Source: Spirochaetia bacterium (GTDB lineage Bacteria; Spirochaetota; Spirochaetia; DSM-16054; Sediminispirochaetaceae). Taken from it: a stretch of 64,000 bases of DNA. A program made the position numbers and the translations under genes. Shown here in pieces: positions 39,410 to 63,808 of the stretch. Position 1 is the first letter of the stretch; each line of letters starts with the position of its first letter. The stretch covers positions 608,001 through 672,000 of the forward strand of contig JAXHMY010000003.1 in the NCBI GenBank assembly GCA_034520965.1, given 5' to 3'. The notes beneath the pieces are model-generated. The model saw only the letters and a list, made by a program, of their open reading frames with translations. It ran no database searches and was not told where the DNA came from.

Positions 39410-40606
39410 CTATTCTATTCCGATCTCATCATCTCGAAGATAACAGGCCGGATCGGCCGCCCAGGTATCACCGGTGGCGGCCTCGGCCCGCACTCTAAAG
39501 TTCCCGCCGCATACATCGAGAAAACAGCACTCGGCGCACCTGCCCTTCACATGCTTCTGCTTCTCTTTCAGCATATTCATCAAGGGGTCCGAGGTTCCGG
39601 TCCATACCTTGCTGAAGGGCCGCTTGCGGACATTGCCAAAGCTGTAGTGCCGCCAGAACTGGTCTGCATCAATTTCACCGTCCCAGCTCACACAGCCTAT
39701 TCCCCGACCCGAACTGTTTCCCCCGTTCATCTGCAGCAGTTCCAGCACCCGGGCCGCCCGCTCCGGATCCTCCTCCAGCAGCTTTAGATAGAGGTACACC
39801 CCGTCGGCGTGATTATCCACCGTCAAGACCTCCGTCGGTTTTCCGCGCTCGTGGAGGCGGCGGGTCCGCTCGATAATCAAATCGATTGTCTCCCGTGTCT
39901 CCTCGTGTGACAAGCCCTCTGTGACAAGATCGCTTCCCCGGCCGCTGTACACAAGGTGATAAAAACAGATCCGTGGAATGGACCTCTCCTCCAGGAGCTG
40001 GAAAATTGCAGGAATCTCGGCTCTGTTGCTCTTGGTCATGGTAAACCTAAGTCCCACCTTTATCCCGGCACTTCTACAGTGCTCCAGACCCTCCAATGCC
40101 CGTTCATACGCATCCGGACGCCCGCGAAACCGGTTATGGGTCTCTCCCACCCCGTCTATGCTTATCCCTACATAGGAGAGCCCGTACTCGGCGAGGCGTT
40201 CCGCTATCGGTCTGGTAAGAAGGGTCCCGTTGCTGGAGAGCACCGCCCGCATGCCCAGATCCCGGGCATATTTAATAAGCTCAAACAGATCCGGGCGCAT
40301 TAAGGGTTCTCCACCGGAGAAAAGCAGCACCGGGCTGCCGAACTCGGCAAGGTCTCGAATCATTGCCTTAGCCTCTTCCGTGTTCAACTCTTCCGTGTTC
40401 CGCTCTTCGGCTGTGCTGTCATCCGAGCGGGAGTAGCAGTGAAGGCAATTAAGGTTACAGCGCTGGGTTACATTCCATACCACAACCGGCCGCTTGTCCC
40501 GGGAGAACTGCAGCAGCCGGGAAGGCAGGGAGCTGGATTTTCTTCCGTAGCGCAGCACATCCGACGGTTCAACCCTTCCGCAGTAGAGTTTAGATATTCC
40601 TGTCAC
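39410..40606 (-). CDS. ahbC: 12,18-didecarboxysiroheme deacetylase, radical SAM/SPASM
   Basis: GISKLYCG...[48 protein letters not shown]. Confidence 0.92.
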
Positions 40607-40630
40607 AAAATTTCTCCTTGTTTAAGCGCT

Positions 40631-40710
40631 TCGTTTCAAAGCCTCGTTTCAAAGCCTCGTTTCAAAGCCTCGTTTCAAAGCCTCGTTCACCCGTTTTGTT
40701 CACCCGTTTT
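40631..40710. repeat. 13-bp tandem repeats
   Basis: TCGTTTCAAAGCC x4 plus partial (40631-40687), then GTTCACCCGTTTT x2 (40685-40710). Confidence 0.9.
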
Positions 40711-42240
40711 CTGGGAAAAACTCCGGATACCTTCGATAAGACCGGGTATAGAGTGCTCCCTAGCCTCCGTCACCACAGGTATACCAAGCTCCTCAGCCGT
40801 CCGGGTGCTTACCGGACCTATGCTTGCCCCGCGTATTCGCGAGCAGTACGCACCTAGTCCATGCTCCTCTAAAAGAGCGACCAGGTTCTGTACCGTGGAA
40901 GAACTGGTAAGGCTTACTATATCCGGAAAGGGTTCAGAAGGCCCGCTCTATCTCTTCCCTGCTATACACGGGCTTGCTTACCGTATAGATAGGTACAATG
41001 CTGCAGCGGGCCCCCATGCGTGTAAGGGCATTTGGAACAATATCCCGGGCAATTTCTGATACAGGAAAAAGCACATACTCCCCCAAAAGCTCGCCCTTCC
41101 GTTCCTTGAAGGCCTGGGCCAAGCCTTCGGAAGTAAACAGCTCTGGAACGAGATCAGCGCGTATCCCGTAGGCGGAGGCGCCGAGGCCGTCCCCGTCCCT
41201 ATACAGGCCACCTTACTTTCGGCCAGAGCCCGGGTATCTAAGCCAAGGCTGAACAGCCTTGAAAAGAATATCGCCACCCCCTTGGGCGAGGTAAACACAA
41301 TCCAGCGATACCCCGATATCTGCCGCAAAGCAGCGTCTATGTCCGAGAAATTCTCCACCGGCGATATTTTTATACTTGGAAGTTCGATCACCTCTGCTCC
41401 CAGCGCCCTTAGGGGTACAGAAAGGCTCTTGGCATCATCCGAACTCCGAGTCACGAGAATACGGCTGCCGAAAAGGGGAAGCTCTTCGAACCAACGAATC
41501 TTCTCGCGCAGCTCTACTACCCGTCCTATCACGGCAATTGCAGGTGGAGATATACTTTCAGCCTGCGCCCGGGCGGCAAGGGTCTCTAAACTGGCGCTCA
41601 CCACCCTCTGCCCCGGTGTGGTTCCCCAGGAGATAATCGCTGCAGGAGTATCCGCCGCTCTGCCGTGCATCAGTAAGGCTTCCACAATGGAGGGAAGGTT
41701 TTTTACCCCCATATATACAACCAGGGTGTGATCGCTTTGGGCCAGGTTCTTCCAATTCTGTTCCTGCTCTTCCGATCCCTTAACTGCTCCATGCCCCGTT
41801 ACAAAGGTCACCCCGTTCGAAAGCCCCCGATGGGTGACAGGAATACCCGCATATGCAGCAGCGGCGCTTCCCGCCGTTACCCCCGGCACTACCTCAAAAG
41901 AAATACCCTCCTGGGCCAGATACAGCGCCTCTTCGCCACCCCGTCCAAAGATGAAGGGGTCTCCCCCCTTCAGACGCACCACCGTCTCTCCTCTGCGGGC
42001 ATGCTCTACCAGCAGGCGGTTAATCTCCTCCTGTCCAAGGGTGTGGCTGCCGGCCCGCTTGCCCACGTATATTTTCTCGCATTCAGGGCGGCACATATCA
42101 AGGAAATTGTTGTTTGCAAGGTAGTCATAAACTACGACCTCCGCCTGCTCCAGGCGCTCACCCCCCCGTACGGTAATAAGCCCCTCATCGCCGGGACCGG
42201 CACCTACCAGAGACACAAAGCCCTTCTCACTACTGTCCAT
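40687..42240 (-). CDS. cobA-hemD: uroporphyrinogen-III C-methyltransferase / synthase fusion, frameshifts near 41178 and 40936
   Basis: LVGAGPGD, RLKGGDPFIFGRGGEE (CobA); ILVTRS, FTSPKGV, then in shifted frames ADLVPELFTSEGL and LTSSSTV...ASIGPVS (HemD). Confidence 0.88.
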
Positions 42241-43165
42241 TTTCGACTGCCTCCAATATCTCCCGTCCGCCTTGATTCAGTATAGCCTCGGCGCATAGGC
42301 GCCCCGCCTCTCTCTCCTCTCCTTGGCTTCGAACCACCCTATGTTCTATACTGCGTTTTCCCTCAAGGTCTGCTACAAAGCCGGTAATCCGGTACTCACC
42401 CGTGTCGGTAGTATCGGAGAGGCAGCCCACCGGAGTATGACAGCCCCCTTGAAGCACATGCAGAAACTCCCGCTCACCAACACTCTGTGCAAGGGTCCGA
42501 AGGTCGCCTACTGCTCCCGCAAGCTCCATCAGCTCCTCGTTATCGCAGCGCAGCTCCATGGCGATAATACCCTGGCATCCGGAGGGAACGAAATCCTTGA
42601 TCGGCAGATACTGGGTAATCCGCTCCTCCAAGTCTAAACGCAACAAGCCCGCCGCCGCAAGAATCAGTGCCTCGCACTCACCCAAATCGAGTTTTCGCAG
42701 TCGGGTTTCGACACTTCCCCGCATTGGAACAATGTGAAGATCCGGACGGTAGCGCCTCATTTGTGCCGCCCGGCGCAGACTCGAGGTACCAATCCTCGCC
42801 CGGCTCCAAGGCTTCGAGCCGTTTGCCGGAGCTGCTTATGCACACATCGCGCGGATCGGCGCGTGGAACTACCCGGCAATACACAGCCCGGGCGGCAGGG
42901 CTGAGGGCAGGTCCTTCAAGCTGTGTACCGCCATATCAATTTCTTTTTGCAAAAGCGCCTTTTCGATCTCCCGCACAAACACATTTGACCCGCCAATCCG
43001 GGCAATCGGAGAGGTTTGATTTTTATCGCCACCGGTACGTATGGTGACCAGCTCAATACCTAAATCGGGGTGGCCGCTGCGAAGCAGGGCTTCCGCCTCG
43101 GATGTTTGAGCAAGGGCAAGGGCACTGCCCCGCGTACCTATTCGAATCGAATTACGAGTTTTCAT
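42230..43165 (-). CDS. hemC: hydroxymethylbilane synthase, frameshifts near 42873 and 42800
   Basis: IGTRGSALALAQ, AVHSLKD; RADPRD; IGTSSLRR, RLRKLD, ILAAAGL, GGC cofactor motif, across three frames. Confidence 0.9.
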
Positions 43166-44451
43166 CCGCCCCCATCCAGCTCATCTTTATTTTTCTCTTG
43201 CTCTTCCAGTTGAAAGAGAGTGTGCAGCATCTCGATATATCCCAGATTCCGTCCCCCCTCAGTGAGCTTCCGCAAGTTCCGTATTATCAGACCGAGCCAA
43301 CGGCCTTCAAGGTAGCTGGTAAACTCTTCAAGCCTTTGATACTCTTCAGCAGGAATCTTTTTCTTTAAGGACGCGAGCTGTTCCTCGTACAGGGACTGGG
43401 TTTTTTGTTTGAGCTTATGAATGGTCGGGGACAACTGCAGCGAAGAGAGCCATGCGAGAAACTCGTCTCTCTGGGAGTTTAAGATCAGCTGGGCTTTCTC
43501 CACCTCCGCCGATCTACGGGCTTTGGTTCGTTCGGTGAGCGCCTGTAGATCATCCACATTGTATAGATGCACCAGAGCCGGGCACTCCGGCGGTACTTCT
43601 ACATTGCGGGGGACTGAAAGATCCATAATAAGCAGGGGGCTCTGGAGCCTAGACGAGAGCCGTAGAATGTGCTCGGAGCGGATAACCGGCTGTGTAGCGG
43701 CGGTGGAGACAAGTACTAAGTCGTATTCATGCAAACTCTCCATCACCGCCCCGTACTCACGGAACTTTGCACCGTATTGAGCGGCTGCCTCAGCGCTTCG
43801 CTCCGGATTTCTTCCGGTTACATACAGCTCGCCGCAGCCTCTGTCGGAGAGACTCTGCAGAACAAGCGTTCCGGCCTCTCCGGTTCCGACCAGTAAGGCA
43901 GATTTGTCATGCAGACTTTCCAAAGACTCTACTGCCAGCTCCACAGCAGTGGAACTCACCGAAGAGGAGCCTTTGTTCAACTGGGTCTCCGTTCGCACAC
44001 GCTTCCCGCTTTCGAAGGCCTTGTGAAATAGACGATCCAAAATTCTTCCCGTCATGCCTCTCGTGGCACTCAAGCGATAGGCTTGCTTTAGTTGTCCAAG
44101 CACCTGATTCTCTCCAAGAACCATAGAATCAAGCCCTGCAGCTACTCCCAACACATGCCGTACCGCATGACTGTTACGATAATGATAGAAACAGTCCATC
44201 TCCTCTTCTTCTGCATTTTTCCAGTTCCGGAGCTGTTCCAGTATATCCCTTCGAAACTCATCTGCATTTTCAGGACCGGCAACGAGGTAAAGTTCACTTC
44301 TGTTACAAGTCGAGAGAAACACCGCCTCGTCTATCGTCGAGAGGCTAAGCAGATCCTTGAGCAGGCTAACTATCTCCTCGTCCGAGGAGGAGAACTTCTC
44401 GCGAATTGCTACCGGGGCCGTTGTATGGTTAATTCCAACTACACAAATCAC
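43162..44451 (-). CDS. hemA: glutamyl-tRNA reductase
   Basis: GINHTTAPVAIRE, LSTCNRSE, GLDSMVLGENQVLGQ, DLSVPRNV. Confidence 0.96.
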   Translation of the reverse strand: MICVVGINHTTAPVAIREKFSSSDEEIVSLLKDLLSLSTIDEAVFLSTCNRSELYLVAGPENADEFRRDILEQLRNWKNAEEEEMDCFYHYRNSHAVRHVLGVAAGLDSMVLGENQVLGQLKQAYRLSATRGMTGRILDRLFHKAFESGKRVRTETQLNKGSSSVSSTAVELAVESLESLHDKSALLVGTGEAGTLVLQSLSDRGCGELYVTGRNPERSAEAAAQYGAKFREYGAVMESLHEYDLVLVSTAATQPVIRSEHILRLSSRLQSPLLIMDLSVPRNVEVPPECPALVHLYNVDDLQALTERTKARRSAEVEKAQLILNSQRDEFLAWLSSLQLSPTIHKLKQKTQSLYEEQLASLKKKIPAEEYQRLEEFTSYLEGRWLGLIIRNLRKLTEGGRNLGYIEMLHTLFQLEEQEKNKDELDGGG

Positions 44452-45044
44452 AGTCTTTCTATCTTCTCAAAAATATCTTTGGTTTTTCCGCTTAAGCTTT
44501 GTTCGATTTTGTCTCTCCTTTCAAGCCACGATAATCTAGTATCATCACATATTTGTCGTCGTTCATCGCGCAGTTCCTCAAGCTCCTGAGCGAGCTCCGG
44601 ATAGAGTTTACGCTGAAAGTACTCTTTTAGTTTCTTTGTAAGCAAAGGTATTCCGCCGGTGGAAAAAGCCACAGCGAGGGGGCCCCTTCTTATTACCGAG
44701 GGAACAATAAATCCTCCCCTCTCCAGCTCTCCGTCTATCCTGTTTACCAAGATACCTCTCCTCCGTGCCTCTTGAACCACCATCTCGTTGGTACCCTTAT
44801 TGTCCGTTGCTGCAAAGGCAAGCACATAGCCTTCAAGATCTCCGTAGCCATAGGCCCTTAGCTGAAGGGTAATACGCCGTTCTTGTACTAAACTCTGTAA
44901 TTCTTCGCTTATCGACAGGGCGATTACATACACATCGGCGGCGCTTTCGATAAGTTTTTCAACTTTACGAGTAGCTACCTTTCCGCCCCCGATAACCACT
45001 ACCGGCATATCTTCGATATCCGCAAAAAAGGGGTATACACTCAT
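44448..45044 (-). CDS. sirC: precorrin-2 dehydrogenase (SirC / CysG N-terminal type)
   Basis: YPFF, VVIGGGKVATRK, AATD, FIVPSVIRRG, STGG; start reassigned to ATG 45044. Confidence 0.88.
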   Translation of the reverse strand: MSVYPFFADIEDMPVVVIGGGKVATRKVEKLIESAADVYVIALSISEELQSLVQERRITLQLRAYGYGDLEGYVLAFAATDNKGTNEMVVQEARRRGILVNRIDGELERGGFIVPSVIRRGPLAVAFSTGGIPLLTKKLKEYFQRKLYPELAQELEELRDERRQICDDTRLSWLERRDKIEQSLSGKTKDIFEKIERL

Positions 45045-45253
45045 ATAGGCCCTATTGTAGGGGGGCAAAATCAAAAAGTAAACAAAATCACACTAGAAAC
45101 AGCTGTTCTCATATTAGCTCTATACTAATCGGATTGCTCCGACAGAAATGAATTTATTACCTAAACTTAGCAATTCCAGATAGTAGAAAAAAAATACCTC
45201 TATGTGGTGTAATGGTTTAGCCACAAACACAAAAACACCCAGGAGGTGAATAA

Positions 45254-45298
45254 ATGGTGCGCCAAAACAGCCGATCCGTCAAGAGCAAAACCGATTGA
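45254..45298 (+). CDS. candidate 14-aa small ORF MVRQNSRSVKSKTD
   Basis: Perfect SD AGGAGGT 6 nt before ATG; hairpin AAAACCG...CGGTTTTTT spans the stop. Confidence 0.3.
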   Translation: MVRQNSRSVKSKTD

Positions 45299-45441
45299 GC
45301 CTTTTGCACTGGCCGGTTTTTTGAGCGTTTCAGTTCTTATATAGGTATATGGCTATTTTCTATAGTCTTGAATCACTACGTTTCCTTCCATTTCGGAGGT
45401 AAAATTTAGCAAAAAGCAGAGCTGAGCGGCTCTACAAGTAG

Positions 45442-45862
45442 GTGTATTTGCCCTCAGACCGGCAGATACTGCAAGGCGAAGTGGAACAGCTGCTGCGGAA
45501 GATCGAGATGAATGCAAAAACTTCCACCTTCAACAAGAAGACGGTCATTCCCGAACTGACCATCAAAGCTCTGGGTTTGAACAACTTCTCCGTCAGTGGA
45601 AGCACCCGCCGCAGAACTCGGCCTTTTAGAAGCGGTGCAGTCAAAACTCTCCGGGCCGCGTACCAAGCTCGGTGTGCGCTCGCACACGCTGGAGCTCACA
45701 ATCAAAGGCAAACAGGACTGCCTACTGAACCTGCAGGATGCGCAGAGCTCAATTCGGGACCTCGATATGGCAAAAGAGCTTGCCGAGCTTTCCAGGAACA
45801 TGGTTCTGTATAAGAGCGCCACCGGGATAATCCTGCGGAAGAAGAACACATCCATCTATTGA
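45442..45862 (+). pseudogene. degenerate short flagellin-like gene
   Basis: DRQILQGEVEQLL...TFN (N-helix end) then shifted frame RTKLG...NLQDAQSSIRDLDMAKE (flagellin C-terminal motif); 5' part lost, in-frame stop upstream. Confidence 0.7.
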
Positions 45863-45996
45863 GCTTCCATCCATTGAGGGAGCGTGCTCCGCGAGGAGGT
45901 CGATGTCGTTGCCGCGTATTCATATCATGCCCTACGGGCAGGCTCTCTTGCCACCCTGCACGCAGGGGATGCCACTGTGGAGCTGCCTAGGTGTAC

Positions 45997-46779
45997 TCAA
46001 GTATAACTGTGCAATCCAGGCAGTAGGTAATTCACCCCTAGAAAGGTAAAAAGGGCAATCAAAAAGCCCAGGATCACGATGATCGGCCCAGCCGTGCTCG
46101 TGTTGCGGCACACCAGACGCAGATGGAGGTAAAGGGTAAAAACAAGCCAGGTGATGAGTGCCCAGGTTTCTTTGGGGTCCCAGCTCCAGTAGCGCCCCCA
46201 GGCCTGCTCCGCCCAGATAGCCCCGAAGATGAGCGCCCCGAGGGTGTAGAGCGGATAGCCGATGCCGACGCTGGTGTAGATGATCCGGTCCAGCCCGCGC
46301 CGCCGCTCTTCTGATTTCGTAAGGACGAAGATGAGCGAAGCGACGAAGGCCGCTGCAAAGAAGACCTCCCCGAGGAAGGCGAAGGCCACGTGCAGCACTA
46401 GCCAGGAGGACTGGAGCGCCGGGACGGGGGGCTTGAGATCTGCCGGGGCGATAGGCGAGGAGGCAACCGCGAGCAATGCGATGGTCAGGACGGTCAGGCC
46501 GAAGAAGAGGAGGCGGTAGAACGGTAAGCGCCGCTGGAGGTGGTATGCGAAACCTGCGGCGGCGAGAAAGGCAGCGAAAAACAGCAGCGACTCAAAGATC
46601 CCCGTCACCGCCACGAAATCGATCGCCACGCTGCGGCGAATCAGCTCGCCAAGCAGCAGGAGTGCCGCGGCAGCCACCGGCCAGTGGGAAACGGCATCGG
46701 CGCGCTGTCTTCGCAGCAAAAGTATGAATATTTGTCCTCCGGCGGAGATCAACAGCAGTATGAATGCAGCGGTAGCCAT
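45997..46779 (-). CDS. ccsA: cytochrome c biogenesis protein CcsA/ResC (system II)
   Basis: WWD motif WAEQAWGRYWSWDPKETW; PALQSSWLVLH, YLHLR, GLHSY histidines. Confidence 0.95.
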   Translation of the reverse strand: MATAAFILLLISAGGQIFILLLRRQRADAVSHWPVAAAALLLLGELIRRSVAIDFVAVTGIFESLLFFAAFLAAAGFAYHLQRRLPFYRLLFFGLTVLTIALLAVASSPIAPADLKPPVPALQSSWLVLHVAFAFLGEVFFAAAFVASLIFVLTKSEERRRGLDRIIYTSVGIGYPLYTLGALIFGAIWAEQAWGRYWSWDPKETWALITWLVFTLYLHLRLVCRNTSTAGPIIVILGFLIALFTFLGVNYLLPGLHSYT

Positions 46780-47732
46780 CAGTTTTCCTCCCGTATTCGC
46801 ACGATTTTACCCACATAGGTGACGGCAAGTCCCAGGCTGGCCAGAATAAAGCCAACCAGTACCACCGTGTAGCCTGGATCACGCACCGCCTGCAGTCCGC
46901 TGATGTGAACGGTGCGAATCGAACGCAGCTTTAACCCTAGTAGCGACTCACCGACCGCGAGCCTGCGGGCCGTACGCTTCATTCCCTCCCGGATCATAAA
47001 TATTCCCTCCTCCGGATCGGAGCCGGCTCCCTCCGGGACTGCGGCAAATTGGACCGTCGCCCCGTCTATCTCCGTGGGGTGGCCAACGATGAGCCGCAGC
47101 TCCCGAAACTCCCCGTCGCTGAAGCGGGCCACCGGTCGCATCGCGTGACGCACCTGATAGAGAGTGTAAGAGCCCAGCCGCAGGGGAGCGTTGACCTCGA
47201 TCTCTACCCTCTCATGCAGGAGCTCGCCGCCACGATGGACACTGACAGTGGAAATCCAATCTTTCGGAGCACCGTCTTCATAACGTTGATACTCGAAATC
47301 GCTCAGCTCTATTCGGTACTCCCCGCCGATGAGATGCTCCTCCCCGGAGGTGAGCAGAAAGTCTTGCTCCTCCCGTCCTACGGAGGTAAGTACACCGCCT
47401 GCAGCGAGAACCAGAATCCCAATGTGAAGCAGATCAGGTCCGACAGAACGTTTTGCCCGCCGGAGCTTTTGTTGAGCCGTGAAGCGCCGCACCGTACAGG
47501 CCCCGAGATTGATCAGAAAGAGTCCTGCGGCAGCAAAAAAGAGGGGCGAGCTAAAGGCGTGGTCGAGACCCAGCAGCAGTACCGCCCCGGCAACCGGCGC
47601 CGGAAGCAGCCGGGAGTACATCTCTGCAGAGCCGCCCTGCGGCAACACTCCACCGGCCACAGAGAGAAGGGTGATCAGGATAAGTAGAACGATCGCCAGT
47701 CGCAGCGAAAACAGCAGCCGCAATAGTTTCAT
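46779..47732 (-). CDS. resB: cytochrome c biogenesis protein ResB/CcsB (system II)
   Basis: SLRLAIVLL...GGVLPQ, NLGACT, LLHIG, IEVNAPL...LYQ, SGLQAVRDPG. Confidence 0.9.
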   Translation of the reverse strand: MKLLRLLFSLRLAIVLLILITLLSVAGGVLPQGGSAEMYSRLLPAPVAGAVLLLGLDHAFSSPLFFAAAGLFLINLGACTVRRFTAQQKLRRAKRSVGPDLLHIGILVLAAGGVLTSVGREEQDFLLTSGEEHLIGGEYRIELSDFEYQRYEDGAPKDWISTVSVHRGGELLHERVEIEVNAPLRLGSYTLYQVRHAMRPVARFSDGEFRELRLIVGHPTEIDGATVQFAAVPEGAGSDPEEGIFMIREGMKRTARRLAVGESLLGLKLRSIRTVHISGLQAVRDPGYTVVLVGFILASLGLAVTYVGKIVRIREEN

Positions 47733-51923: not shown

Positions 51924-53549
51924 ATGTTGACCTCCGCCAAACATAAGTTCATCTTCATTCATGTACTCACAATGTTAGTACCGCTGTGTGTTATGGGACT
52001 GCTCATTACCATATTTGCGTGGGAAGAAATCGAACAGAGATTTCACCAAGAGCAGATATCCATCCTGAATTCAATAAAAAACCAAGTAGTCGACAGGCAC
52101 GCCGGAGCAATGGAAAATACACTTTTAGTCCTCTCTGAAGATGATGAGTTGTGGAGAATCCACGATGATCCGGAGGTGCAGGATCGGATTCTTAAAAACT
52201 GGAAACTGCTGCAGCAAATATTTCCTAAGCGGGCCTGGATTTATTATGGCGATACCCACAACCGCATTATTGTCTCGCCTCCCTGGGAACCACCGGAGGA
52301 CTACGACCTCAGAGAGCGCCCGTGGTACACCGCTGCTAAAGAGAGTGGCCAGTTAACCTGGGTACAACCCTATGCCGAATTTATCACTGAAGAAACAGTC
52401 TTTACCGCCGCCGTCCCCATCCATAATAAAAACGGTGATTTCACCGGAGTGCTGGCAATAGACACCTTTCTCCAGGATTTCTTCCAGGGTATGCGCACCG
52501 AGGCACTGAAAGAGACTTCTCAACTCCTCATAGTTACCCGCAACAACGAGTCTATTTCCCTCACCCCTGAACAAGAGGATGTGAATACTGCAGACAACCC
52601 CTTCGAATGGAGTAAATTCTTTCGGAATACCGACAGCAGCGGCTACATCAGCTTGAGCGGTACAACCTATTATGCGGCCTTCAAAGAACTCACCCCGCTT
52701 CAGTTTTATCTGGTAAGCCTTACCCCCCGCAGTGCCATTATGACCGATATGGAAACCCTTGGTTACATCATTATTATAGTTACCCTGCTCGGAATCCTCG
52801 TAACTGGCGCCGGCAGCATATATATCGCCCGATACGTGCTGTCCAACATAAAAAGCCTTAACTCCTATATGCATGACATCACCCGGGGAGACCTTACCAT
52901 ACGCACCTGTGTCTCCGGGCAGGATGAGTTTCTTACCCTGAACGCTTACATGAACAGCATGGTCCGAACACTATCCCGACAAATAGAAAGTCAGAAGCGT
53001 ACCAACCAGGAACTGGCCGAGAAAAACAAAAAACTCGACAGACTTGCCAATATGGACGGACTAACCCGCATCGCAAACCAGCGTTATTTTACCGAAACCA
53101 TGCAGCATGAGTGGGAGCGGTTGGGCCGGGAAAAGCAGCCCCTCTCCCTTCTATTTTTGGATATCGATTTCTTTAAACCCTACAACGACCATTATGGACA
53201 TCAAGCCGGCGACGAATGCCTGCGCATAATGGGAGGCATCCTGGAAAACGTCACCCGCCGTCCGGCGGATATCGCGGCTCGCTATGGAGGCGAGGAGTTT
53301 GTCATTTTGCTTCCCAACACCCCTCTCGAAGGAGCCCAGCAAATAGCCCTTGAAATACAAAATAACCTAGCCCAAGAAGAAATCCCCCATGAAAAATCGG
53401 AAATATCCCCCTACCTCACCTGCAGCATAGGTGTCGCAACCACAGTACCGAGCAATGACTCCTCGGCAGACAGTCTTGTAGAGGAAGCGGATAAGGCAAT
53501 GTACGAAGCCAAAAAAGAAGGCCGCAACCGCATTGTTGTAAGTTCTTAA
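51924..53549 (+). CDS. membrane diguanylate cyclase (dCache-HAMP-GGDEF)
   Basis: YDLRERPWY dCache motif, two TMs, HAMP, DIDFFKPYNDHYGH, RPAD I-site, GGEEF. Confidence 0.93.
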   Translation: MLTSAKHKFIFIHVLTMLVPLCVMGLLITIFAWEEIEQRFHQEQISILNSIKNQVVDRHAGAMENTLLVLSEDDELWRIHDDPEVQDRILKNWKLLQQIFPKRAWIYYGDTHNRIIVSPPWEPPEDYDLRERPWYTAAKESGQLTWVQPYAEFITEETVFTAAVPIHNKNGDFTGVLAIDTFLQDFFQGMRTEALKETSQLLIVTRNNESISLTPEQEDVNTADNPFEWSKFFRNTDSSGYISLSGTTYYAAFKELTPLQFYLVSLTPRSAIMTDMETLGYIIIIVTLLGILVTGAGSIYIARYVLSNIKSLNSYMHDITRGDLTIRTCVSGQDEFLTLNAYMNSMVRTLSRQIESQKRTNQELAEKNKKLDRLANMDGLTRIANQRYFTETMQHEWERLGREKQPLSLLFLDIDFFKPYNDHYGHQAGDECLRIMGGILENVTRRPADIAARYGGEEFVILLPNTPLEGAQQIALEIQNNLAQEEIPHEKSEISPYLTCSIGVATTVPSNDSSADSLVEEADKAMYEAKKEGRNRIVVSS

Positions 53550-56413: not shown

Positions 56414-57382
56414 TTATTCATATAGATAACAGGCCACCTCGTGACCGGATTCAATCTTTACCATTTGCGGAATATCCTGTTTGCACTTTTCCATTACGTG
56501 GGGACAACGGGTGTGAAAGCGACATCCCGAGGGCGGATTTATTGGACTGGGAACCTCACCTTCAAGTGCACTCAGCTCCAGTCGTCGATCGGGATCGGGA
56601 AAAGGAATCGCCTTCAAGAGCATCTGGGTATACGGATGCGATGTTCGGGCAAACAGTTGATCAGTAGGAGCAATCTCGACGATTTTACCAAGATACATTA
56701 CCGCTATTCGGTCACATAGATGCTTTACCACACTTAGGTCGTGGCTGATAAACAGATAGGTTAAACCAAACTCTTCCTGTAACTCTTTAAGAAGGTTGAG
56801 CACCTGGGCCTGAATGGAAACGTCCAGGGCGGAAACCGGCTCATCAGCTACCACAAACCCCGGGTTCAAGGCCAAGGAACGGGCTATCCCGATTCTCTGC
56901 CGCTGCCCTCCGCTAAACTCGTGGGGGTAGCGGTCGTAGTATTCTTTGCGCAGCCCGACTCTGTCCATCAAAGCCACAACCTTTTCGCGACGCTCTTTCG
57001 CAGTTCCTATGTGATGCACATTGTAGGCCTCGGCTATTATAGAACCGACCTTCCAGGTCGGATTAAGGCTGGAATAGGGGTCCTGATAAATAACTTGGGC
57101 TTGTTTACGAAACTGAACCAGCTCCTTCTTTTTCATTGAGAAAATATCATCGCCCCGAAAAAATACATTTCCCCGGGTAGCCGGCTCCAGATTAAGAACA
57201 AGCTTACGGGTGGTGGATTTTCCACATCCCGATTCTCCTACCAAGCCCAGGGTCTCCCCTTCATCGACGGAAAAGGAAATTCCATCAACCGCCTTTACCT
57301 GATCGTATTTCGTAAGTGTGTTCTGACGCCGAATTGGATAATGTTTATAGAGGTCTTCTACCTTCAGCAAGGGCTCACTCAT
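56414..57382 (-). CDS. dppF: peptide ABC transporter ATP-binding protein
   Basis: GESGCGKST, FSGGQRQRI, DEPVSALD, GCRFHTRCP. Confidence 0.93.
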   Translation of the reverse strand: MSEPLLKVEDLYKHYPIRRQNTLTKYDQVKAVDGISFSVDEGETLGLVGESGCGKSTTRKLVLNLEPATRGNVFFRGDDIFSMKKKELVQFRKQAQVIYQDPYSSLNPTWKVGSIIAEAYNVHHIGTAKERREKVVALMDRVGLRKEYYDRYPHEFSGGQRQRIGIARSLALNPGFVVADEPVSALDVSIQAQVLNLLKELQEEFGLTYLFISHDLSVVKHLCDRIAVMYLGKIVEIAPTDQLFARTSHPYTQMLLKAIPFPDPDRRLELSALEGEVPSPINPPSGCRFHTRCPHVMEKCKQDIPQMVKIESGHEVACYLYE

Positions 57383-58355
57383 CCGTCACCACTCCTTCAT
57401 TTTCAAAGTTCCAGCAGCGAATCATTGATTCGCCTACCTGATACGCCGGCGGCTCCTTTATACGGCAGATTTCACGACACTCGGGACAGCGCGGATGAAA
57501 CCGGCAGGCAGCGGGCAGAGTAGTCAAATCGGGCATAGTACCCTCGATAATAGGCAGTTTGGCTTGTTTAATGTCTATATTCGGAATTGTCGCTAACAAG
57601 CCCCGCGTGTAAGGGTGTTTGGGACGCCGAAAAAGCTCATCCATTGAGGAAAACTCCACAATTTGCCCGGCATACATTACACCAACCTTATGGGCCACCT
57701 GCGCAACTACCCCCAGATCGTGGGTTATCAGCAGCACTCCGGTATCCAGACGCTCCTGTAAGTTCCTCATCAGCAGCAGTATTTGGGCCTGAATGGTTAC
57801 ATCCAGAGCGGTAGTAGGTTCGTCGGCAATTAAAATATCCGGGTTACATGCCAGGGCCATGGCGATCATTATTCGCTGCCGCATACCACCGCTCAGCTGG
57901 TGGGGATACTGCTTCATTATTCTGCGCGCATTCGGAATGCCAACTAAATCAAGGGAATCCACGGTCCTCTCAAGAATCTCCGCCCGGCTTCCGCCTTGAT
58001 GCAGTTCGATAGTCTCGGACAACTGGTCCTGAATAGTGAATACAGGATTCAAGGAGGTCATCGGTTCCTGAAAAATCATGGAAATTCGATCACCCCGAAT
58101 TTTCTGCAATTCATGTTCAGTGAATGCAAGCAGATTCTTATCCTGATAGTTGACACTTCCGGTGACACTTGCATATTTCGGCAGCAGGCCCATTACTGCG
58201 AGGGAGGTAACACTTTTGCCGGCCCCGGATTCACCGACCAGCCCCAGGGTTTCACCTCTTTCAAGGCTAAAATCTATACCGTCCACCGCAACTACCGCAC
58301 CGTGGTCGGTGTGAAACTCTATTTTTAAGTCGTTCACTTGCAGAAGCTTACTCAT
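57375..58355 (-). CDS. dppD: peptide ABC transporter ATP-binding protein
   Basis: GESGAGKS, LSGGMRQR, DEPTTALD, CRFHPRC. Confidence 0.93.
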   Translation of the reverse strand: MSKLLQVNDLKIEFHTDHGAVVAVDGIDFSLERGETLGLVGESGAGKSVTSLAVMGLLPKYASVTGSVNYQDKNLLAFTEHELQKIRGDRISMIFQEPMTSLNPVFTIQDQLSETIELHQGGSRAEILERTVDSLDLVGIPNARRIMKQYPHQLSGGMRQRIMIAMALACNPDILIADEPTTALDVTIQAQILLLMRNLQERLDTGVLLITHDLGVVAQVAHKVGVMYAGQIVEFSSMDELFRRPKHPYTRGLLATIPNIDIKQAKLPIIEGTMPDLTTLPAACRFHPRCPECREICRIKEPPAYQVGESMIRCWNFENEGVVTDE

Positions 58356-58365
58356 CTTAACGCCC

Positions 58366-59232
58366 TTATCGCTTTAATTTCGAATCGAAGGCCTCGCGCA
58401 AACCATCGCCGACCAGATTGAAGGAGAGCACCGCCAGTACAATCATAATTCCCGGAAACACGGTCACCCACCACTGTCCCATCAACAAGTACTCCTTGCC
58501 GGAACTCAACATCGCTCCCCATTCCGGGGTGGAAGGTTTTATACCGATTCCCAAAAACCCGAGTGAAGCGGTATACAGAATTGCATCCGCTAATAACAGG
58601 GTTAAATACACTAAGGCGGAGGGAAATATGTTCGGCAGAATATGACGCCCCATAATCCAGACATTACCTCCGGCTAAGGCCCGCGATGCTTCAATGAAAG
58701 AGTTGGTCTTTACCTTCAAAACCGAACCCCGCACCACCCGCGCCATCTGCGGTATATATACCAAGGAAATCGCAAACATCGCGTTCTGCAGCCCCGCACC
58801 TAAAGAGGCGGCGACGGCCAATGCCAGCAAAAGCGGTGGAAAAGACAGGAACACATCAATAACTCTCATTATAAGAATATCCACGACCCCGCCGTAATAG
58901 GCGGAAACTATACCCAGCAGGGTTCCGAAAAATGCGGTTACCGCAATTACCATATAGCCGACCCGCAGCGAAATCGCACCGCCGTGCAGTATCCGTGAAA
59001 GCAGATCGCGCCCTAAATTATCCGTCCCCAGGGGATGCTCCCAGTTGCCGGCCCAAAAACCGGGCTGCAATTTATTCTCCAAATTGGTTGAAACCGGATC
59101 ATACGGAGAGATCAGTGATGCAAAAAGAGACAGCACAACTAGCAGGAGGGCTACAAACAGAGCAACCATAGCCAAGCGGTTTTTTTTAAAAATTGTAAGC
59201 TTTTGTAAAAATTCACTTTGCATGTGGTCCAT
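58366..59232 (-). CDS. dppC: peptide ABC transporter permease
   Basis: HPLGTDNLGRD, EASRALAG, HILPN, PEWG, GDGLR. Confidence 0.93.
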   Translation of the reverse strand: MDHMQSEFLQKLTIFKKNRLAMVALFVALLLVVLSLFASLISPYDPVSTNLENKLQPGFWAGNWEHPLGTDNLGRDLLSRILHGGAISLRVGYMVIAVTAFFGTLLGIVSAYYGGVVDILIMRVIDVFLSFPPLLLALAVAASLGAGLQNAMFAISLVYIPQMARVVRGSVLKVKTNSFIEASRALAGGNVWIMGRHILPNIFPSALVYLTLLLADAILYTASLGFLGIGIKPSTPEWGAMLSSGKEYLLMGQWWVTVFPGIMIVLAVLSFNLVGDGLREAFDSKLKR

Positions 59233-59234
59233 CC

Positions 59235-60245
59235 TTATTCAAACCTAATGCGCGGGTCGAGTTTCGCATATATCAAATCAACAATAATATTTACCAAAAT
59301 AAAGGCTAACGCCAGAATAAATACAATTCCCTGTACCATCGGATAATCACGATTCGAAATCGACTGAATCAACAAACGCCCGGTTCCCGGCCAGGAAAAC
59401 ACCGTTTCCGTTAGTATAGCACCGGCCAGCAGCTTTCCCATTTGCAGGCCGATAACCGTAATAACCGGAATTAGCGCATTCTTCAGAGCGTGCTTGTAGA
59501 TAATTTTTCGATAGGGCAGCCCCTTCGCCCGCGCCGTTCTGACGTAATCCTCGCTCAGGACATCCAGCATGCTCGATCGGGTTACCCGCACAATCTGTGA
59601 AAGAGGAATGGTGGCTAAAGACAGGGCCGGCAACAGGAGATGTTTTAAACTGTCGAGGAAAAGACTCATATCGCCCTGCAGGAGGGTATCAACCAGGTAG
59701 AACCCGGTAACCTCCTGCACTCCCGCTCCCATAGAAATTCGCCCGGAAACCGGAAGCCAGCCTAAAACTGCGGAAAACAGGAACATCAACATAATTCCCA
59801 GCCAAAAAATAGGAATCGAAACACCGACCAAGGAAAATGTCACCAACAGATGGTCAAACTTGGAGTTATGGTGGTAGGCCGCACTTACGCCCACAATAAT
59901 TCCAAACACGGCCGCCACAATTGTAGCGGTCAAGGCCAATTCAATAGTTGCCGGCAAACGCGAGCGTATCGCTTCGGTCACCGGCAAGCGGCTCTGCACG
60001 GACATACCAAAATCCCCCTGCAGAGCGTGGACAAACCAATTCCAATACTGCTCGTACATTGGCTTATCCAATCCCAGCCTTTCGGTAAGTGCCTGCCTGG
60101 CCGCCTCGGTGGCCTTGTCGCCCAGCATAACCTCAATCGGATCCCCAGGTATAAAGTGGACTAAAAGAAAAACAAGAATAGTCACTCCTATTACTGTAGG
60201 AATCAAAAGGAATAGTCTTTTAAGTAAATACCGCAATAAACCCAT
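59235..60245 (-). CDS. dppB: peptide ABC transporter permease
   Basis: PGDP, GDFG, YVRTARAKG, HALKNA, ETVFSWPG, DPRIR. Confidence 0.93.
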   Translation of the reverse strand: MGLLRYLLKRLFLLIPTVIGVTILVFLLVHFIPGDPIEVMLGDKATEAARQALTERLGLDKPMYEQYWNWFVHALQGDFGMSVQSRLPVTEAIRSRLPATIELALTATIVAAVFGIIVGVSAAYHHNSKFDHLLVTFSLVGVSIPIFWLGIMLMFLFSAVLGWLPVSGRISMGAGVQEVTGFYLVDTLLQGDMSLFLDSLKHLLLPALSLATIPLSQIVRVTRSSMLDVLSEDYVRTARAKGLPYRKIIYKHALKNALIPVITVIGLQMGKLLAGAILTETVFSWPGTGRLLIQSISNRDYPMVQGIVFILALAFILVNIIVDLIYAKLDPRIRFE

Positions 60246-60439: not shown

Positions 60440-60645
60440 TTAAAATGAAGAATTATATAACTTACAGCTTAAAAACCCTGTTCTAAACTTATTAAAAGGA
60501 GCTCCGCTATTATGCTTATCCCGTAGAACCACGAGGCCGCCCGGGCGGGCGCAGCTGCGACCGCCCCTGCCGCCGGGCCTGCGCCGGTAGCCGCCCCCAA
60601 TAAGCTTTGGGTCGGCGTGGTTCGACCAAACGATGCTACACAAGA

Positions 60646-62802
60646 TCACTTTTCAATCAGCTTCTCTATCCCCCTGATCAGTTCGAGGGAATAGTGGGAA
60701 ATATCCGGTATATCCTTCTCGGGTACGCGAAAGCCGATGGCACCGGGGTGCCCGCCGCCGTTTTCAATTGAGAAGGTGCTGAGTATGGTTCGCAGGTCTA
60801 TGTCTTTGTATACTTCACTGCGGCGAACCCTGAACTGTATCAGCCCCTCGCCTGCTTTATGATCGGGGTATGCCACAAGGCTCAACATTTTGCTCGATTC
60901 AGCCAACACATCGGCCAGATATCTTGCCACCGACACAATTGTGTCGTGGTCAAAACGGGACTCGATCACCCCCATAGTCTCTCTTCTAATAATTACCGAC
61001 GCCACTTTATTAGAGAAAAAGGCCTGCGACTCCATCATAGAGTTGAAACACTGCTCCTCCTCCCGCGTCAGCCGCTGAAGTTCGGTAAACACTTGGTCCA
61101 TGGAGGAAAAGTTTCTGGAATTTTGGCGGGTTTTACTGTTCAGCATTTCATTGAACATTCCGCTGAACAAATTGTAGAACCAACGCTCTCTCCTTGTTTT
61201 GAGGTATTTCCCCATTTTTGAATCACCAATAATACCAGTTAGCACCGACAGGACAAAGTTCCGGGAAAATATTTCCTGAATCGAAAATGCTTCTATAATT
61301 GAACATTCGTTGGAAAGCTTAAAGGCCAAAAGGCCGACCAACTCACTGGCCGATGAAGCCTCGTCGACAAGGCAGTAGCCGGGGTCCCCCGCGTAGCTGC
61401 TGTCGGCTCCGAGGTGGTGGTCTATCTCAATTTTAAGTAACTCCCTGCGGGCCAGTAGGCCCGCAGAGCCGGGAAAGGACTCCTGCATGGCCGGTTTGGG
61501 GGTATCCATTAGAAATACAGTGGAAATATCCCGCGGGAGCTCTTCGTCGTTGTAGATAATTCCTATTTCGTTATACCTTGAGATATGAAGAAGATACTGG
61601 TAGTTTTCGTTTACCCTTCTAGGAATCATCAGATACACGTTTTTTGCAAACTTACTGATCAAAAGTCCCATGGCGATCATCGAGGCAACACAGTCCTCAT
61701 CCGGATCCCGGTGTCCAAGCATAAGAAAATTGTCCTGTTCCGCAATCGCCTGAATTATGCGCGATATAATCCGGTTTTTCTCCTTAAGACTGTATATGCC
61801 TGTCTTGCGCCGTCCATCTTGACCATTTTCATTCCATGCAACCGCCCGGCTTCGGCCCTCCTCTTTTGCTCGATATAGGGCTTTGTCGGCCTGCTTCATC
61901 AGCACAGCAAAGGAATCTCCATGTTCGGGAAAAGCGGCTATACCTATACTTGCAGCAACATGCTTCACCGAAGCACCCGGTTGTACCGGCAACTTAATCT
62001 TTCCCAGCTCTTGGATAAGACCCTTGCAGTACTCCAGGGCCTGCTCCGGAGAGGTATCTTTCAGCAGAAAGGTAAACTCATCCCCGCCGTAGCGGACGGA
62101 GACAGTATCGGAGCTGAAAGTTTTTCTAAAGGCCTCCACAGCAGCCCGTAAAACCTGGTCCCCTACAACCTGGCCGTATTCATCATTGATGCTCCCAAAA
62201 TGATCAAGATCGAGCATCATAAGGCAGAGGGGAGCGCCTATGCGCTGGGCCTCGATCAAACGCTCTTCCGCTGCCTGATCGAGGAACCTCCGGTTGTACA
62301 GTCCGGTAAAATCATCGGTGATTGCCCGGGCCCGCGCCTTCTCGCCCCAGGTTACCATATCCGATAAAAAAGCGCCGGTTGCCGTTAACCTCTGGGCGGT
62401 AGTTTTGAGCATCCCCCGCATTATACTGATACCCGCTTCAGGTTTAGATTTTATGAACTCATAAAAAACACCCGCCCTCAGACTCAAGACGGTGGTATCG
62501 CTTTTCGGAGTACAGGTGGCCGATCTTTCGGCACTGTCAAAGATAGACATCTCCCCAAAAAAACTGCCCTCCGAAAATTTCCGCCAGTTCCAACACACCC
62601 CCGTCCTGGGTGCCCACCGAAATAGAAACACAGCCTGAAAGGACGATGTACATAATCTCCCCGGTATCCCCTTCTGTAAAAAGGGTCTCTCCCTCCTGAT
62701 ACTCTTCGGTCTTCATTAATGAATAAAGCCGGTTTAGATCATCCAAGGAAAGAGAAGAAAAATATCTATCGATCTCAGCACTTCCACCGGTGTTTTGGCC
62801 AT
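60646..62802 (-). CDS. cNMP-binding + GGDEF + DHH/DHHA1 protein (~718 aa; two compensating indels near 62760 and 62578)
   Basis: LFTEGD...MYIVLSG, FFGEMSIF...RSAT; DDFTGLYNRR, DLDHF..IND.YG...GD, RYGGDEF; GHRDPDEDC, IDHH, GIIGDS, GGGHPGA. Confidence 0.85.
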
Positions 62803-62804
62803 AC

Positions 62805-63808
62805 TCAAGACTCCCCTTGCCCATCGGTAAAGAGAACCTTATTACCCCCGCGGCGTCTCCCCGCAAGGGGCAGTTCATGAGTTTTGAAAAGCATCTCTTC
62901 AACATTGCCTTCAAAACCTGGATACATACACACTCCGACACTGGCGGTCACCCGGAACTCATTGCCCCCGGCGGCCTTCGATACATCAAGCTTATTCATA
63001 AACTCTTTAAGTTTGTGGGCCTGTTCACGCGCCTCATCACGGCTCACTCCGGGAAAAATAACCGCCACAGCGTTTCCCTTGTACCTGGCAATCCTTTCAT
63101 CCTCTCCGATAAAATCCCGCAAACCCCGGGCCATAATTTTGATGGCCAGATCACCCGCATCATGACCGTATGCATCATTTAAGGTTTTGAAGTTATCCGG
63201 TTTTGTAATAGCCAGAGCAAAAGAAGCTTCTTCCTTTGAGGAATCACTTTTGTCGGTCAGCTCCCGCAGCTTTTCCGTCAGAAACACCTGGTTGTACAGC
63301 CCTGTAAGGGTATCCCGGTACACCTGTTTCTGCAGCTCCTGTACAAGCGGGGAGTTCTCTTTTACAAGCGTATTTACCCGCCGTATTCTCCCGGCTGTCT
63401 CAACGAGAATCCTGTGCAGAATACGGGCGGAAACTGAAGGTCTTTCTTCGAGAAACTCAAAAAATCTTTCCCCCGACGTGGAAACTCCAGAACCCACGTT
63501 TCCTCATCTGCCAGGGCCGAAGCGCCCCTGACTGCAGAGGTAAACAAATCTAGTTCCCCAAAAAGATTACCCATCACATAACGGGCAATAACCTTGAAAC
63601 GGCCCTCTTCGTCGGTCTTTCGGACTATCACCTGCCCGGTTTCCACAATGTACAAGGACCGGCCCGGATCGCCCTGCAGAAATACAGCATCGCCGCTTTT
63701 ACAACGGCGGATTACACTGTTTTCGGCTACCACCAGGATATCCTCTAAGGAAAGCTCTGAGAAAAGCTCCGCCTGCCTCACAATTTGTTCTTTTCGCGTT
63801 TCTTTCAC
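62805..63808 (-). CDS. cNMP-binding + degenerate GGDEF protein (~334 aa; frameshift near 63472)
   Basis: VFLQGD...LYIVETG, FGELDLF...RGASA; RDTLTGLYN, KPDNFKTLNDAYGHDAGD, RYKGNAV in place of GGDEF; GTG 63808 after GGGAG. Confidence 0.82.

Follow-up and report, generated by a model that had tools for sequence, protein, structure and literature searches.

The minus strand of the window, which is the whole stretch of 64,000 nucleotides analysed here, carries two adjoining genes, denoted A and B-C. Gene A (62805..63808, about 334 aa) encodes a cNMP domain together with a GGDEF domain that is degenerate (GGDEF*), and it has an intact 334-aa orthologue at L036:2280-3284. Gene B-C (60646..62802, about 718 aa), which has 55 intact fused homologues, encodes a cNMP-GGDEF-DHH/DHHA1 fusion; its ATG at 62802 lines up with residue 1 of a 717-aa homologue (P0003) and is located two bases past the stop codon of gene A. 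The longest uninterrupted frame of B-C, ORF 60646-62631 on the minus strand, encodes 661 aa, in which Pfam detects part of cNMP_binding, GGDEF (E 7e-42), DHH (5e-9) and DHHA1 (6e-4, which is under the curated cut-off). The three-module architecture described in the initial annotation is borne out by these matches and by the homologues: among the best 120 of 1053 matches to the DHH part, 55 have all three domains at full length (708-739 aa), 62 consist of a DHH that stands alone, and 3 are partial, including that of the window itself. All the motifs quoted in that annotation were found at their places in B-C. The predicted structure of B-C has a pTM of 0.43.

Alignment with the intact relative G002 (87% DNA identity) placed two compensating 1-bp indels in B-C at about 62758 and 62574, in agreement with the two homopolymer indels initially proposed, and a third 1-bp indel, near 63458, shifts the frame of gene A in the present assembly. 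The three indels fall within 900 bases, all in or beside homopolymer runs, and contigs of related strains have the in-frame form at all three sites. The GGDEF-DHH junction, which had been described as uninterrupted, is bridged by a contig with 0 differences over 61678-61907. No near-identical contig covering 62574 or 62760 was found, so that assembly error, the likely cause of the B-C indels, falls short of proof. If the three indels were real, the module would be a pseudogene in this genome, which is a statement about the copy and not about the family. The density of the indels, the lack of near-identical cover at two of them and the neighbouring operon at 56673-60245, which has no coding gaps relative to G002, would fit such decay; however, two of the indels compensate each other, every downstream motif is intact, the DHH part is 92% identical to that of an intact relative, and the homopolymer context and the in-frame related contigs also speak against it. 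We therefore regard decay of this copy as very unlikely.

The phosphate-binding cassette of the cNMP domain of B (62512..62562, minus strand) consists of FFGEM at 62548-62562 and RSATC at 62512-62526, and it follows the CRP-type pattern G-E...R-(S/T)-A. In the paired loci, G is kept in 40/40, E in 39/40, and R, S and A in 40/40, which upholds the canonical cNMP pocket first reported. The corresponding cassette of A keeps G in 40/40, E in 39/40 and R in 33/40. Judged from these residues, both cNMP pockets look competent, and the cassette of B is kept more strictly.

The GGDEF domain of B (61846..62325, minus strand) contains the motif RYGGDEF at 62074-62094. Residues are numbered here as in DgcR of Leptospira biflexa, and their roles are taken from the accessible text of the DgcR study (PMC8041772), according to which D174, E217 and E218 are metal ligands, guanine is bound by N182 with D191, and the gamma-phosphate is bound by K289 with R293. 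Two residues extend to the opposing substrate, R147 and K179, the latter positioned over the opposing alpha-phosphate, and D183-Y286 and D282-H187 are proposed as cross-subunit pairs (PMC8041772). The window's B keeps D174, N182, D191, GGDEF, R147, D282, Y286, K289 and R293; position 179 is Gly and position 187 is Gln, and D183, which is Asn in 36/55 fused homologues, is present in this copy. The motifs DLDHFG and FSSD were both confirmed. The FG and GQ readings, which had been noted as a caveat, are thus real, but they are not a quirk of this copy, as G and Q are each found in 53/55 fused homologues. Similarly, the absence of an RxxD I-site holds for the window's copy (FSSD) but not for the family, in which R..D occurs in 26/55 B-C fusions, 51/56 A-B fusions and 8/38 members of one further B set. 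The common R..D I-site fits c-di-GMP as the product and counts against the heterodimer model favoured below.

Comparison across the paired loci shows that the two GGDEF domains are conserved as mirror images. In B, D174 and GGDEF are kept in 49/49, R147 in 48/48, D282 and Y286 in 50/50, N182 in 49/49, D191 in 48/49 (N in 1), K289 in 50/50 and R293 in 48/50, and D174 with GG(D/E)EF is present in 55/55 fused homologues. B therefore has the motif, the metal Asp, and the guanine and phosphate residues of a canonical diguanylate cyclase. The cross-subunit residues K179, D183 and H187, which a canonical cyclase carries on one chain, are those that B lacks: K179 is found in 0/49 (G in 34, R in 11), D183 in 6/49 and H187 in 8/49. 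These counts indicate that FG/GQ is a family trait.

In A, K179, N182, D183 and H187 are each kept in 45/45 paired loci and D191 in 43/45 (S in 2). The metal Asp at position 174 is replaced by Lys in 45/45, which departs from a canonical cyclase, and position 293 is Gly in 45/45. A has no GGDEF motif in the paired loci and typically reads MGNE or KGNA; position 282 is mostly His/Phe and position 286 mostly Leu/Phe, with D282 and Y286 outside the four commonest residues. The GGDEF* of the window's A carries KPDNFK, NDAYGHDAGD, RYKGNA and THELPLAGRRRGG. The same pattern extends to the 103 A-type domains found among 111 representatives with mutual identity below 50%, of which K179 and H187 are kept in 103/103 and D183 in 102/103. 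The triad missing from B is thus invariant in the upstream partner gene, which lay outside the feature first described. Since the residues lost by B are kept by its adjoining twin, the two are likely to be a two-part enzyme with one active site.

The pattern [KR][DE]H is kept by 0/93 DHH-fused B domains, even with R or E allowed, whereas K, D and H are kept in 30/30 other spirochaete GGDEF domains, a control set that leans canonical because it was picked as the best Pfam scorers. Among the other GGDEF domains in the window's genome, K is kept in 8/9, D in 9/9 and H in 9/9, and 4 further domains were unparsed. The window itself supplies an internal reference at 51924-53549 on the plus strand, where a canonical membrane diguanylate cyclase of dCache-HAMP-GGDEF architecture has K179, D183 and H187 as well as an RxxD I-site. 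A near-canonical R/E/H triad is found in 54/56 B domains of the A-B-fused clade, and RDH or REH in 7/28 split loci. Some B homodimers may accordingly be active, and outside the clade of the window B may need A only in part.

The initial annotation regarded B as an apparently intact cyclase, and the 0/93 against 30/30 comparison does not support a self-sufficient one. In an extended form of that scheme, B would be a self-sufficient cNMP-activated homodimeric diguanylate cyclase similar to XC_0249, A would be a dead paralogue acting as an inhibitor or as a receptor of GTP or c-di-GMP, and the DHH would degrade pGpG or c-di-AMP. All the metal, guanine and phosphate residues and the literal GGDEF are indeed present, the I-site frequencies in the B-C and A-B fusions fit feedback by c-di-GMP, the A-B-fused clade has its R/E/H triad, and the window's genome has one diadenylate cyclase (DAC) and 8 class III cyclase matches. 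However, a self-sufficient B leaves unexplained both the invariant K179, D183 and H187 of A, which coincide with lost D282 and Y286, and the absence of the triad from all 93 DHH-fused B domains; we consider it rather unlikely.

The two genes are closely associated. A lies ahead of the cyclase gene B in 45/50 loci that have B; four of the five remaining loci are cut by contig ends, and L086 has no adjacent A. The A-B spacing is −11 to +18 nt in 35/45 loci, with one gap of 196 nt and nine larger overlaps that probably stem from first-start ORF calling. In addition, A and B occur on one polypeptide in 56 protein clusters. The linker of these natural fusions has only about 8 residues, which is probably too short for a parallel intramolecular pair, so the fusions show coupling and not geometry and would have to pair between chains. 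The identities of A and B across pairwise comparisons correlate with rho 0.82, which reflects shared ancestry, and one natural A-B fusion modelled with AlphaFold2 (54 sequences) shows confident domains at a pTM of 0.45, which is uninformative on packing. No further conserved neighbour of the module was found, the largest neighbour clusters being antisense shadows or general transporters and sensors, and promoter and terminator scans gave counts at chance level.

Several variants of the pair were observed. The single-chain A-B fusions (P0121-P0176 and L101:4198-6222) are about 640-690 aa long with a short linker, and their B reads R179/E183/S186/H187. Several genomes carry two A/B pairs, and in a divergent pair at L172 (G068:C57) both motifs are further eroded, with SGDEF in B and RMRSNE in A. 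In one genus, the position after the A/B pair is occupied not by the DHH, which is located elsewhere (L166), but by a third GGDEF-motif protein of 418 aa (L165:5520-6776 and L167:1962-3218). In G025 (L103:3374-5589), the DHH of the B-C gene is split over two frames, and B reads H-F-A at the position of K179 and has a divergent helix. Beside the module, at 60446-60655, the close relative G002 (L104:4037-6010) has two extra convergent genes that are absent from the window, which we take to be esterase-like and nucleoside-phosphorylase-like.

The DHH domain (61321..61728, minus strand) carries GHxxPDxD, DT and DHH. All the metal motifs and the GGGH of DHHA1 are kept without exception among the fused (55/55) and stand-alone (62/62) homologues, so the complete set of DHH metal motifs claimed at first reading stands. 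It is followed by a GD motif at 61216-61227 and by the DHHA1 domain (60694..60951, minus strand), assigned by Pfam, structure match and motifs, with QFRVRRS at 60817-60837 and GGGH at 60748-60759. The window's copy reads GHRDPDED, MDTPK, IDHH, GDSK and GGGH, and thus has the metal motifs DxD, D, DHH and D together with the GGGH of a DHH/DHHA1 phosphoesterase. The best Foldseek matches to the DHH part are TM1595 and NrnA (fold E 8e-16), and the catalytic domain of GdpP matches with E 5e-10 and, in Foldseek, with 17% identity; the DHH part is about equally like TM1595, NrnA, GdpP and DhhP. The DHHA1 strand QFRxRRS has three near-invariant Arg in a register that differs from that of the RxRxR motif of NrnA, which binds the 5' phosphate in the available account of that enzyme (PMC9779919). 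From its sequence, this Arg-rich strand resembles the linear-substrate motif of NrnA more closely than GdpP, and the pGpG-specific DHH enzyme PggH is a precedent (PMC8861645). The DAC in the window's genome makes c-di-AMP a possible substrate of the DHH as well, though two other NrnA-sized DHH frames exist there.

In a scan that covered 185,579 species genomes, 368 relatives were detected. The best 80 loci comprise 78 titled spirochaetes and 2 unassigned bacteria, with 22 fused loci, 28 in which B stands directly before a separate DHH, and 30 with the DHH alone. The DHH is separate in about half of the homologues, with 62 of the 120 best matches stand-alone and 55 fused. A quick tree of the DHH domains requires at least 7 changes in the fused state, and well-supported branches force 6 of these. 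The B-C fusion is thus evolutionarily labile, having repeatedly arisen or disappeared, and does not define the system. In 24 of the 31 genomes whose DHH locus lacks an adjacent pair, an A/B match is found elsewhere. Among 301 genomes of the phylum, A/B is present in 73, a close DHH (E below 1e-100, with 17 weaker matches not counted as close) in 69, both in 59 and neither in 218; seven candidates per genome were scored for A/B, and related genomes are not independent. A close DHH occurs with no A/B match in 10/69 genomes, including a 1.1-Mb one, and this, together with the 30/80 loci in which it is non-adjacent, indicates that the DHH can act alone. The 17 weaker matches (E 1e-44 to 1e-52) represent another DHH/DHHA1 subfamily, which is more distant and about 400 aa long; most of the genomes that have it give no A/B match (4/17 have one).

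The repeated fusion bears on another explanation, in which the phosphodiesterase is the output. The cNMP-GGDEF pair would then yield hardly any product, if any, and would regulate the DHH by sensing nucleotides, as the degenerate GGDEF of GdpP does. The 22/80 fused loci and the repeated changes on the tree are consistent with it, as is the trans-triad being most eroded in fused B, and the degenerate GGDEF of GdpP, as described in the available text, is a precedent (PMC9779919). On the other hand, the metal ligands and GGDEF of B are invariant, 14/73 genomes have A/B but no close DHH, and A-B fusions exist that have no DHH domain at all. A purely regulatory role of the pair thus appears quite improbable.

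On balance, we favour the reading that A and B-C pair as a heterodimeric, cNMP-gated GGDEF enzyme in which a single catalytic half-site is complete, and that the attached DHH hydrolyses the linear product. Gene order, reciprocal conservation, fusions and co-occurrence tie the two genes together. On the published DgcR dimer, the competent form of which is itself a model (PMC8041772), the A·B pair would have exactly one complete half-site. In both dimer models, forming one bond depends on the chain in which the attacked GTP sits for its metals and motif acids (PMC8041772; PMC6456294), and the DgcR model additionally calls for K179 of the other chain (PMC8041772). The accessible text of the DgcR study reports no mutation of K179, D183 or H187 (PMC8041772).

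In the proposed reaction, the nucleotide held by A, which keeps N182 and D191 and has lost the metal Asp (to Lys) and Arg293, would give the 3'-OH, and the GTP held by B would be activated by the metals of B (D174, E217/E218) and by K179 of A, with the interface closed by the A-D183/B-Y286 and A-H187/B-D282 contacts. Two guanine nucleotides would be joined by one 3'-5' bond per binding event. The reverse bond would have neither the metals of A nor a K179 of B, and its two contact pairs are gone on both sides, so that each binding event is predicted to give pppGpG, or pGpG if A, with R293 lost, takes GMP. In the available literature, pppGpG is a normal intermediate (PMC6005682). Because both guanine pockets are intact, the released intermediate could rebind flipped and cyclise, and c-di-GMP would be formed only after such release and flipped rebinding. 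Binding of cAMP or cGMP to the two cNMP domains would shift the coiled-coil linkers and thereby switch the enzyme, and the attached DHH/DHHA1 would clear the linear product. The fourth motif Glu, which A keeps in 28/45 loci, weighs against this model.

A stricter version, in which A/B is an obligate single-site synthase with linear pppGpG or pGpG as its end product, the DHH is a dedicated eraser and the whole is a system gated by cAMP or cGMP, seems doubtful to us. If it were true, this linear-dinucleotide system would span about a quarter of the sampled spirochaete genomes, and a product that stays linear would mean that a linear dinucleotide has a writer and an eraser of its own; molecules of this class have until now been known as intermediates or as products of breakdown.

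Among known systems, DgcR, PleD and WspR are homodimeric diguanylate cyclases that have two half-sites (PMC8041772). In the accessible account, they share the fold of the present domains as well as the metal, guanine and phosphate residues of B, with one nucleotide per domain and catalysis across the dimer; in A/B, by contrast, the cross-subunit residues are split over two genes and only one of the two half-sites is complete. XC_0249 of Xanthomonas campestris is a cGMP-stimulated cNMP-GGDEF cyclase, which likewise has the cNMP domain directly before GGDEF and is gated by a cyclic mononucleotide, as is predicted here; it is described as one protein, associated with a guanylyl cyclase gene and having neither the degenerate twin nor the DHH of A/B-C (PMC3770947). 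GdpP/YybT also has a GGDEF N-terminal to DHH/DHHA1 (PMC9779919; PMC12943098), but in B-C the GGDEF is intact, the sensor is cNMP, the DHH is distantly related and there is a GGDEF* partner. Membership of B-C in the GdpP family was rejected, as there are no TM helices, no PAS (Pfam finds cNMP, GGDEF, DHH and DHHA1 only) and the GGDEF is intact. The DHH part shares its metal motifs, GGGH and Arg-rich DHHA1 strand with NrnA, TM1595, Borrelia DhhP and Vibrio PggH as these are described in the accessible texts (PMC9779919; PMC8861645), and differs from them as a distinct, longer subfamily of about 390 aa with 14-17% structural-alignment identity and RxRR instead of RxRxR. Hypr GacA is likewise a GGDEF variant, in which changes of cross-dimer residues alter the product, but the asymmetry of A/B is encoded in two genes (PMC6456294, available part). 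Hypr membership was also rejected: Ser in place of the guanine-reading D191 (PleD D344) is found in no B and in 2/45 A, and D191 is kept in both B (48/49) and A (43/45), so that neither is of the Hypr type.

In the accessible parts of two surveys, the cNMP-domain example in a review of sensory inputs is Bd1971 (PMC8846402), and a Leptospira survey mentions DHH for YybT only (PMC12943098). No heterodimeric diguanylate cyclase, cNMP-GGDEF-DHH protein or pair of this kind was found in the open-access literature, and within that scope the earlier statement that no protein of this architecture is known to have been characterised holds. A cNMP-GGDEF pair was likewise not found in the literature on Treponema denticola cyclases.

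Class III adenylyl cyclases contain C1/C2 pseudo-heterodimers, in which homologous domains with complementary losses form one active site. A/B differs in belonging to the GGDEF family and in its predicted joining of two nucleotides rather than the cyclising of one; if the heterodimer is real, the GGDEF family would have its own equivalent of those enzymes in a natural pair with a single half-site, in which donor and acceptor are separated. Such a pair would also allow K179, D183/H187 and the fourth motif Glu to be tested directly for their roles, on which two studies disagree (PMC8041772 vs PMC6456294). If annotation went by the GGDEF motif only, B would be labelled active and A dead in 73/301 sampled spirochaete genomes.

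Elsewhere in the window, a 176-aa ORF at 42230-42760 on the minus strand lies inside a haem/sirohaem and cytochrome c biogenesis-like cluster (39410-47732). It presumably resembles the C-terminal part of porphobilinogen deaminase and is possibly frameshifted.
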